Positions 15,001 to 18,000 of a stretch of DNA of 64,000 bases are shown here, piece after piece. Numbering within the stretch: position 1 is the first letter of the stretch; each line of letters opens with the position of its first letter. A program made the position numbers. The stretch comes from Escherichia coli (GTDB lineage: Bacteria; Pseudomonadota; Gammaproteobacteria; Enterobacterales; Enterobacteriaceae). The stretch lies in NCBI RefSeq assembly GCF_022846255.1, contig NZ_AP025682.1; one strand, given 5' to 3'.

Positions 15001-18000
15001 CTGGCATATCAGTATGGGTCTGAAGATACCCGGCGCTTAGTGTGGACTGATGCTCTGCTGCGCTTGCTGGCGTACCAGCGGCAACCAGCCAGACTACTGC
15101 GGACAGAATAACAGCACATAATTTACGCATAATTACCTCTCGCTTTTCTGCAATAAAAAAGGCGTCATTTCTGACGCCCGTATTGGGGTTATAAAATTCA
15201 GCTGATACTGATGCCTGCGGTGGCTTTCTTCATCACCACAACCAGCAAATCGCTGATACTTGCTGTGGGATACCAGTCATTTACCAGCCATGCTGACACC
15301 GAAAACTCCAGCGTCATGTGACCGTGACCGGCAGGCATATCAATAACGCCACTGTAAATCAGCGTATTATCCAACGCGGTACGGTTATAAATTTCAGCAC
15401 CGTTTTTCCGCACTATCAGACGGCATGAGGAGTAAATATCAGTATGCTCTCTCTCATGTTTAGCGCCGCTGAATGCCACCGCCGGAATAACAATCTGCCG
15501 GTCAAACGGCTGATCGTCATAAATCCTGACGGTAATGGTCCCTGATGGCCACCGTTCCGGTGCACGGGAGTCCCGGGGGAAAGCTTTGCCCACTGTTTTA
15601 ACGAGATCGCCTTCAATCTGGTTCGCGGACAGTTTTCCCAGAACCCGGCAGTTCTCGTTAATCGTGACGTTGTTGAGCGTCCCGGAGTTCGCATTCACGT
15701 TACCGCTGATATCGGCATTTTTCGCCGTCAGCCGCCCGTCCGGTGTCAGGGAAAATGCCGGAGGATTACCGCCGCTGGTAATGGTGGGAGCCGTCAGATA
15801 TTTCAGGAACACTTCGTTCATGAATATCTGATCGCCCTGACCAACAAACATCGGCTTTGTGTTGCCATTTGCAGGATTAACCATCGCAATCCTGTCCGCC
15901 GCCAGCAGCACCTGACTCTGCATGCCGTCAGGGGTGTTCTCAATACCGGCACCAATACCCGCGATATAAAGGCGTCCGTCCCGCATCTGCTGCAGCTTCA
16001 CAGCCCACATGCTGTTCAGGTTATTATTTGTATCAACCTGAACCTTCTGTATCTGCTGAATTGCCGCACTCTGGTCTTCCAGTTTCTTATTGACGGTCTG
16101 CGTGATTTCATTGCTGACACCCGTAATGGACGTCCTGATTTCAGCCAGGTCAGGCGCAAGCTGACCGTTATCAATCTGCGTCCACAACTCCTGAGCCAGA
16201 TGGGTTTTCCCTATCTCTCCTTTGAAAAAATTCAGATAGCCGGATGCATCATCACTCGGCTGGCCAACAGCCTCCACAAATGCCGATTTGCCAACGGTGT
16301 TCACACTGCGGATGTAAAAATAATAATCATGGCCCGGTTTGATATTGATACTGGCGGCTATCCAGTACAGCGCCGTGCCAAGATAGCGTGCTGTGGTTTC
16401 AACCTGCCTGATATCCGCAATCCGCTTTTCCGAGAACCAGAACTCAAACTGTACCGTCGGATCATAAACCGCAAGATGCGGCGTGGCGGTTATCTGAAAA
16501 TACCCCGGTGTCAGCTCAATCTGCGACGGCGCTGCCGGTGCGGCAATCCGGAACGATACCGATGCCGGATCGCCCTGCTGCCCCCACGCATTTACCGCCC
16601 GGACTGTCAGCCTGTAGTTCCCCAGCGCCAGTTGCCTGAAGCGGTATGTGGTTTCCGTCGTCCGGGCCATGCTGACCAGCCGCTCACTGCCGTCGTCCGC
16701 TGCCACGGTAAGGCGAAGCAGGAAGCTCACGCCCTTCACCACCTTCGGCGTGTCCCATCGCGCCAGCACCTGATATTCCCCGCTGTCTGCGGTGACTTCG
16801 GCGGTCAGGTGCTGCACCGCTGGCGGCGTGACACCATTCACCGTGCCGCTCTGGTCGCCGTCAAAGTGCGCCCCGTTATCCACGATGGCTTCTTTTTCCG
16901 GTACATGCTGCACGGCGGTGATGGCATACGTACCGTCATCGTTCTCCCGGATACTCACACAGCGGAACAGGCGCTGGCGCAGCGTCGGCAGCTTCAGCCC
17001 CCATACGCTGTATTCAGCAACACCGTCAGGAACACGGCTCACTTTCACCTTCACGCCGTCGGTGACGGACTGAACCTCCACGCTGACCGGACTCCCCTGC
17101 CCGTCAACCAGGCTTATCAGCGTGGTGCCGGAGGATGGCAGCGTGATTTCACGGTCGAGCGTCAGCGTCCGGGTCTGGCTGTTTACCGCCAGCACGCGCC
17201 CGCCGGTGCTGATACCGGCATAGTCATCATCACAGATTTCAATGACATCGCCCGGCACATGGCGAAGCCCTTCTGCGCCCACGCTGAAGTCCACGGTCTG
17301 CGTTTCCAGCAGTTCTGTTTTAATCAGCCACAGCCCGGCGCGGTGTGCCTGCCCCCGGCTGGTACAGCCAAAAGCATCCATCTTCGTGACGTTACGACCG
17401 TAACGGGCAATGGCCTGCGTGTCCTCCACAAGCTCTGTCGCCGTCTCCCAGCCGTTGTTCGGGTCAATCCAGTTCACCTCAACGGCATTATGGCGGTCTT
17501 TCAGGGCGCTGAAGCTGTAGCGGAACGGCGCGCCATCATCCGGCATCACCACATTACTGCGGTTATAGGTCCACACCTTATCCGACGGTCGGTCCTGCAC
17601 GAACGTCAGCGTCTGCCCGTTCCATACCGGCATACAGCGCATCGCCGAGCAGAAATCACTGAGCACATCCCACGCCTTGCGCTGTGTGGTCAGGTACGCA
17701 TTACAGGTGATGCGCGGCTCCGTGCCGCCAAAACCGTCCGGCACTGACTGGTCGCAATACTGGCCGATGACATACAGCGCCCATTTATCCACATCTGCCG
17801 CACCAAGACGTTTCCCCATGCCGTAGCGCGGGTGGGTCAGCATATCCCACAGACACCAGGCCATGTTGTTGCTGTATGCTGGCTTAAACGTTCCGTCCCA
17901 GATACCGCTGTATTGCCGCGTCTGCGGGTTATAGTTCGACGGCACCTGCAGAATACGCCCGCGCAGATGATAATTACGGCTCACCTGCTGGCTGCCGAAC

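Follow-up and report, generated by a model that had tools for sequence, protein, structure and literature searches.

The J gene in the window analysed here, a stretch of 64,000 nucleotides from the Escherichia coli contig NZ_AP025682.1, raises the question whether a tail tip protein that follows the one of phage lambda over much of its length also attaches to lambda's receptor LamB. J is encoded on the minus strand (15198..18677) by a single uninterrupted ORF, and the translation yields an intact tail tip attachment or central tail fibre protein of 1159 amino acids (aa), compared with 1132 aa for lambda J. The Pfam domains FNIII-A_GpJ, Phage-tail_3, Ig_J, Ig_J_second, Phage_Tail_Tip and Ig_GpJ_C (PF24801, PF13550, PF24421, PF24489, PF09327, and PF12421) are all found above their curated cut-offs and in the order of lambda J. 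With this full domain set, the receptor-binding domain as the last C-terminal element and its position in the tail cluster, the protein belongs to the lambda-type J family. The ORF order on the minus strand is H-M-L-K-I-J-lom-stf, with H, M, L, K, and I located 5′ of J on the coding strand and lom and stf 3′ of it. DNA flanking the J cluster matches E. coli chromosomes at 97.5–99%, which indicates that the J-bearing element is a lambdoid prophage residing in E. coli. Immediately downstream, a terminator-like hairpin consisting of an 8-bp stem followed by a T run (15160..15179, minus strand) matches the consensus, by which alone it is assigned, and lies at a place equivalent to that of an annotated terminator in phage 21. 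It separates J from lom (14531..15130, minus strand), encoding an Ail/Lom outer-membrane protein with a full-length match to PF06316 (426 bits). Two ORFs in alternative frames within the 3′ part of J, 15416–15694 on the minus and 15535–15831 on the plus strand, were dismissed as chance ORFs, as the J coding frame is strongly conserved.

Overall, the J protein of the window shows 83% aa identity to lambda J (NC_001416; BLASTP), and the DNA identity per 60 nt is distributed unevenly along the gene. It amounts to about 96–98% over gene nt 1–2400, drops to 25–65% between nt ~2400 and 2860, where the window J has a net insertion of 27 aa, returns to 83–95% over nt 2881–3000 and finally settles at about 50% over nt 3001–3480 (window positions 15677–15198). 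The corresponding numbers of mismatch or gap columns are 96 (nt 1–2400), 222 (2401–2880), 13 (2881–3000), and 223 (3001–3480). At the protein level, residues 1–805, comprising the hub and FNIII domains (16263..18677, minus strand), are about 98% identical to lambda J (BLASTP), and in 90-nt windows the DNA of this part shows 90–98% identity to lambda and 92–100% to phage 21. The adjoining shaft and upper fibre block, residues 806–954 (15816..16262, minus strand), reaches only 21–71% nt identity to lambda but 94–100% to phage 21. In lambda J, the equivalent region forms the alpha-helical shaft and the central straight fibre (PMC11101478). The 27 residues lacking in lambda can be placed approximately at aa ~836–870 (16068..16172, minus strand), as judged from a gapped stretch in the BLASTP alignment and from gap-rich windows in the DNA alignment. 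Hence, the original prediction of a J protein with about 1000 N-terminal residues nearly identical to lambda does not hold for aa ~806–954, which constitute a second divergent block. Its other part, namely that the final ~150 residues diverge, is borne out at the very position assigned to it and far beyond chance, with 41% aa identity over aa ≥1011 and about 50% nt identity.

For tracing the origin of these blocks, the gene was compared with phage records. In megablast searches, a match over the whole gene was obtained with few phages, namely PhiR55_1 (97.6% nt identity over the full gene length), vB_EcoS-640R1 and PhiR46_1, whereas for a large number of others, phage 21 and several lambdoid phages of the infant gut among them, the match (about 96%) is confined to nt 1–3100. 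A mosaic plot was derived from a four-way DNA alignment, from which PhiR55_1 was left out. In this alignment, the J gene of phage 21 (OL657228) is 92–100% identical to the window up to a sharp junction, the shaft block that is unlike lambda included, and falls to 45–68% nt identity at the 3′ end. The opposite holds for the Stx1 prophage VT1-Sakai of O157 Sakai, with 48–95% nt identity upstream and 96–100% across nt ~2866 to ~3466. Between the phage-21-like and the VT1-Sakai-like part, a recombination junction was located at gene nt 2862–2907 (15771..15816, minus strand; maximum chi-square 557), where the ratio of phage-21-like to VT1-like informative sites switches from 546:38 upstream to 4:168 downstream. 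Just downstream of this junction lies a conserved motif of 13 residues (aa 969–981; 15735..15773, minus strand). Five of the six aligned J alleles have retained it completely or almost completely, the h434 allele being more diverged there. J is therefore a three-part mosaic, in which the exchanged 3′ module comprises about 200 codons. The natural junction is positioned about 25–35 residues upstream of the fusion point that has been used by engineers for retargeting lambda particles.

The receptor-binding domain carried by this module (aa 1029–1159; 15201..15593, minus strand; PF12421, Ig_GpJ_C, 128 bits versus a cut-off of 26.2) represents the allele named 1A2 or VT1-Sakai. Over aa ≥1011, identity to VT1-Sakai is 97%, followed by phage 21 (63%), phi330 (60%), lambda (41%), and h434 (41%). 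When only the last 150 aa are considered, PhiR55_1 is 100% identical, and VT1-Sakai, many long-tailed Stx2a and Stx1a phages, PPompW prophages, JLK-2012, P-EibA, and 2G7b are 97–98% identical. The other classes comprise phage 21 with about 63%, phi330, 1717 and YYZ-2008 with about 60%, and lambda and phage 434 with 41–42%. Aligned with the J C-termini of lambda and the Stx phages, the window sequence is accordingly not lambda-like but of the VT1-Sakai type. Neither the LamB-binding allele of lambda (41% aa identity, no megablast match beyond gene nt ~3000) nor that of phage 21 (63% aa identity, length differences in two hypervariable segments and a junction upstream of the domain) is present. 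The J protein of phage 434 (lambda h434, OM418627), which uses OmpC as receptor, has the same domain family but, at 41% aa identity, forms a separate allele class.

Compared with the VT1-Sakai module, four substitutions are found, I1052V, R1076K, D1134N and S1157T (window residue given first), all of them conservative. The gpJ 1A2 module studied experimentally corresponds to the J C-terminus of phage VT1-Sakai (AP000400) and thus to the same receptor-binding allele as in the window. As the published 1A2 DNA (PMC11338833 supplement) is only available as OCR-damaged text, it was aligned by a frameshift-tolerant protein-to-DNA method. In this alignment, 195 of 218 residues are identical between 1A2 and aa 943–1159 of the window J, with 8 being unreadable. 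At positions 1052, 1076, 1134 and 1157, the 1A2 DNA reads V, K, N, and T, respectively, which are the VT1-Sakai residues, while two further apparent differences (F/L and S/T) are inseparable from OCR noise. Near-identity to the 1A2/VT1-Sakai allele consequently extends over the entire exchanged module, that is, from the equivalent of lambda aa 964 onward. The two proteins differ in context: the 1A2 module sits on a lambda shaft, whereas that of the window is attached to a natural, phage-21-like shaft.

Sequence searches against the PDB retrieved the A8 gpJ entries 9wca and 9wcb (E = 3e-82) and lambda J 8xcj (E = 3e-61; entries 8XCJ and 8XCK). When the last 200 aa were modelled with AlphaFold2 (pLDDT values of 68–95 over aa ~1020–1155), an Ig-like beta-sandwich fold was predicted for the C-terminal domain, although the monomer model cannot show the trimeric prism. 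In line with this, the top Foldseek matches of the model are 9wca, 8xck, 8xcj, and 9wcb, the last being the open state described as ‘A8 gpJ 713 with OmpC G17 from E. coli EDL933’. Lambda J (P03749; PDB 8XCJ with LamB) hence shares family, domain order and fold with the window protein but deviates in the diverged shaft block devoid of the 27 residues, in the receptor-binding domain, in its hypervariable segments and in binding LamB. The nearest solved structure to the window tip is that of the OmpC-binding J of A8/phi330 (PV189401; PDB 9WCA, and 9WCB with EDL933 OmpC), which belongs to the same domain family at 60% aa identity.

Variation between alleles is concentrated in four segments of the domain, two of which differ in length. 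Segment 1 (aa 1036–1043, DSRAPERW; 15549..15572, minus strand), in which the residue at each position is common to at most one of four other allele classes, is of variable length and longer in the window than in A8/phi330. Its counterpart in the alignment is the short phi330 loop T918–Y921, treated as a receptor-side loop by the phi330 authors. Segment 2 (aa ~1073–1081, HEREHTDIY; 15435..15461, minus strand) contains R1076 and is shorter than its counterparts in phage 21, phi330, and h434 by 5–7 residues; it aligns with the phi330 hairpin E953–S962, for which the docking model of the phi330 authors predicts an orientation into the OmpC barrel. Segments 3 (aa ~1098–1106, NRTALDNTL; 15360..15386, minus strand) and 4 (the 12 residues aa 1128–1139, including D1134; 15261..15296, minus strand) are defined by low conservation across alleles, and segment 4 aligns with phi330 A1015–P1020, predicted to touch the OmpC rim in the same docking model. 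In a crude enrichment test on the AlphaFold2 model, allele-variable positions were not significantly more frequent in predicted loops than in strands (p = 0.5). Therefore, the term hypervariable segments is used here instead of loops, and the claim is limited to their co-location with the phi330 elements.

With respect to the receptor, Brödel et al. (Nature 2024, PMC11338833) have fused natural prophage gpJ C-termini onto lambda gpJ at residue 964, among them the chimeras 1A2 and A8. In a K-12 ΔlamB ΔompC background, delivery by 1A2 depended on complementation with a suitable ompC variant; 20 out of 23 tested variants, including the EDL933 OmpC (G17), allowed it. At the highest dose, these 20 accepted variants resulted in 76–99% GFP-positive cells, whereas G1 (K-12), G2, and G40 gave only 2, 1.5, and 0.9%, respectively (PMC11338833 source data). 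In wild-type MG1655, which is LamB-positive and has K-12 OmpC, the lambda gpJ reached 98% of the cells and A8 96–98%, but 1A2 only about 5% (PMC11338833). In a follow-up study to Brödel et al., 1A2 was employed for targeting O157 strains via their OmpC. A8 is a phi330-type allele, for which OmpC use has been established by knockout and complementation; it accepts K-12 OmpC, whereas 1A2 does not. Since the module of the window is only four residues apart from the OmpC-tested 1A2, a host receptor other than LamB, as originally proposed, is supported, albeit by this homology and not by divergence from lambda as such. By the same homology, it appears highly probable that the J tip of the window docks on OmpC of a non-K-12 type rather than on LamB. 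Host records of related phages fit into this picture. PhiR55_1, with its identical tip over the last 150 aa, is plaque-forming and was propagated on E. coli C, and ECOR phages bearing the window allele are on record as propagated on E. coli C or ECOR13 but in no case on K-12, as would be expected if K-12 OmpC is not accepted. Publications in which temperate ECOR phages such as PhiR55_1 and its relatives were used report dependence on ManYZ but no outer-membrane receptor for them. A receptor-prediction preprint from 2026 was also considered but concerns the GpJ of Drexlerviridae and not lambda-type tips.

That divergence from lambda alone is insufficient for postulating a new receptor is demonstrated by phage 21, as its tip is just 45% identical to that of lambda at the aa level and nevertheless natively uses LamB. 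By analogy, the window tip, being 63% identical to that of phage 21, might have retained LamB as well. This is considered very unlikely, as the poor delivery of 1A2 into LamB-positive MG1655 stands against the 98% achieved with lambda gpJ, 1A2 did work in a lamB deletion strain given a suitable OmpC, and the window tip is unlike phage 21 in all four hypervariable segments, including the changes in length. Membership in a clade is likewise an unreliable predictor of the receptor, because phage 21 (LamB) and phi330 (OmpC) are 81% identical in the receptor-binding domain. Moreover, few residues can matter, since phage 21 gains the ability to use OmpC through just one mutation in J (PMC11336670). 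Caution is hence appropriate for the transfer from 1A2, in particular as R1076K and D1134N fall into segments aligned with the predicted OmpC-contact hairpins of phi330. Considering also that single J mutations widen receptor use in both phage 21 and lambda, the tip might recognise OmpC but with the four substitutions shifting the range of accepted variants, for example, toward K-12-type OmpC, or adding a second porin such as OmpF, which would make the window tip a naturally occurring variant, altered in specificity, of the most frequent J tip in E. coli. Such a shift is regarded as improbable, though less so than LamB use, given the conservative nature of all four changes, the frequency of this exact allele (711 E. 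coli records at ≥99% nt identity over the last 403 nt) and the fact that E. coli C and not K-12 is recorded as the host of PhiR55_1.

The J of VT1-Sakai, which has the same tip, is frameshifted, most E. coli genomes possess several J copies (median of 2 places per genome) and many prophages are defective, so that the J gene of the window might be a relic with a tip no longer having a function. In contrast to VT1-Sakai, however, the ORF of the window is intact over 1159 codons with every Pfam domain present, the gene is embedded in a complete tail cluster made up of K-I-J-lom-stf and H-M-L, and an identical tip is functional in the plaque-forming phage PhiR55_1. A mere relic is consequently hardly to be expected. 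The resemblance to PhiR55_1 (PV340571) is not restricted to the J gene and its last 150 aa but extends to the arrangement of lom, stf and the ORFs following the latter, while the tape measure proteins differ in size, with 1018 aa in PhiR55_1 versus 853 aa in the window.

Returning to attachment to OmpC as the favored reading, the baseplate hub, FNIII domains and fibre shaft are formed by the first ~955 residues of lambda and phage 21 type, whereas the last ~200 residues, corresponding to the lower beta-prism plus the Ig-like receptor-binding domain, were gained as a block from the lineage of VT1-Sakai, the long-tailed Stx2a phages and PhiR55_1. Judging from the published 1A2 tests, the trimeric tip would then dock on the trimeric porin OmpC instead of LamB and accept most natural E. 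coli OmpC variants with the exception of the K-12 one. In the case of lambda, the Ig-like domain inserts its bottom loops into the LamB lumen, the three domains spread, and the change passes up the fibre and opens the tip (PMC11101478). By homology to the complexes of lambda J with LamB and A8 gpJ with OmpC, binding might similarly spread the bottoms of the three receptor-binding domains, and this movement could be relayed up the fibre until the tail tip opens for DNA ejection. The tape measure protein H, which is 96% identical to lambda H, presumably then takes the lambda route across the inner membrane.

An initial, reversible contact different from that of lambda would be provided by the non-lambda distal half of the side tail fibre Stf (793 aa; 12091..14472, minus strand). 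Its N-terminus is lambda-like, with the first ~134 residues common to lambda (PF08400 at aa 5–134) and 58% identity to lambda orf-401 over aa 5–345, and is followed by an alanine/serine/threonine-rich repeat region (189-nt unit, 2.3 copies). As anticipated by the original prediction, the C-terminal part diverges: no similarity to lambda orf-314 is detectable in the distal half, whereas aa 240–793 are 62% identical to the Stf of phage 21, and the protein as a whole gives a full-length match to phrog_1419. At the position of lambda tfa, three ORFs are found 3′ of stf (10798..12091, minus strand), encoding proteins of 93, 233 and 103 aa. According to PHROG and Pfam assignments, these belong to phrog_1361, to the C-terminal end of phrog_3299 combined with a Peptidase_S74 chaperone domain (26.7 bits, cut-off 22), and to phrog_1443, respectively. 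The same three-gene layout is present downstream of stf in PhiR55_1.

Exchange of J modules, the allele present in the window, its receptor and the structure of a sister allele on OmpC have already been published, and the finding is ordinary in this respect; the mosaic structure of this particular J, the position of its junction and the identity of its tip allele are the direct observations added here. For annotation purposes, it is useful to note that labeling such prophage J proteins as LamB-binding by analogy with lambda would be wrong. The frequency of the alleles illustrates this point. Among 5426 complete E. coli genomes, 3371 contain the window tip allele (last 403 nt, ≥80% coverage), with 1846 records at 95–99% nt identity in addition to those at ≥99% mentioned above, and the phi330/A8 allele occurs in 1639 of these genomes. 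The tip of the window thus represents the majority form in E. coli, and the LamB-binding tip of lambda, although the textbook case, is a rare allele compared with the common OmpC-type tip. Lambda's own allele is found in only 97 of the 5426 genomes, in all cases at ≥99% identity, and the five matches listed are laboratory K-12 and B (BL21-type) strains.

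The tape measure gene H of the prophage (window 21080-23641, minus strand) encodes a protein of 853 aa sharing 96% identity with lambda H, and H of this lambda type has been associated with ManYZ-dependent entry (PMC13190303). Hence, the prophage combines a lambda-type H with an OmpC-type J tip. In PhiR55_1, the phage carrying the most similar J, H is 1018 aa long as compared to the 853 aa encoded here. The same receptor-binding allele as in the window J is found in J of the Stx1 prophage VT1-Sakai (AP000400, 3229-6701), which, however, is annotated as two truncated CDS with a frameshift between them, whereas the window J is intact. 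Directly 3' of J, a terminator-like hairpin is located at 15160-15179 (minus strand), in a place equivalent to that of annotated terminators 3' of J in phage 21, and another one directly follows lom at 14483-14504 (minus strand).

Within stf (minus strand), a 189-nt unit is tandemly repeated 2.3 times at 13495-13921, with sub-periods of 42 and 21 nt also being present. Besides, a stretch at 13450-14200 shows a strongly negative AT skew of about -0.55 at a GC content of 0.56; it overlaps these tandem repeats, whose encoded product is an Ala/Ser/Thr-rich repeat of the 'KTSETNA' type within the Stf shaft. Downstream of stf, a 233-aa ORF (11099-11800, minus strand) bears a Peptidase_S74 intramolecular chaperone domain and matches the tail-fibre PHROG phrog_3299 only at its C-terminal end, i.e., over the last ~240 of 1385 positions. 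This ORF looks like a piece that has become detached from a fibre or like a distal fibre tip encoded as a separate protein.

Just beyond the last of the tail-fibre ORFs, the GC content falls to 0.35-0.38 at 10000-10750. When comparing window positions 1-9000 with complete E. coli genomes, none gave a match over at least 80% of the length, and in the best matches only 3691-7406 aligned as a single block. Window 1-10750 may represent an island or the prophage boundary. An adjacent pair of tRNA genes, Thr-TGT and Asn-GTT, is present within the prophage at 36514-36669 (minus strand).
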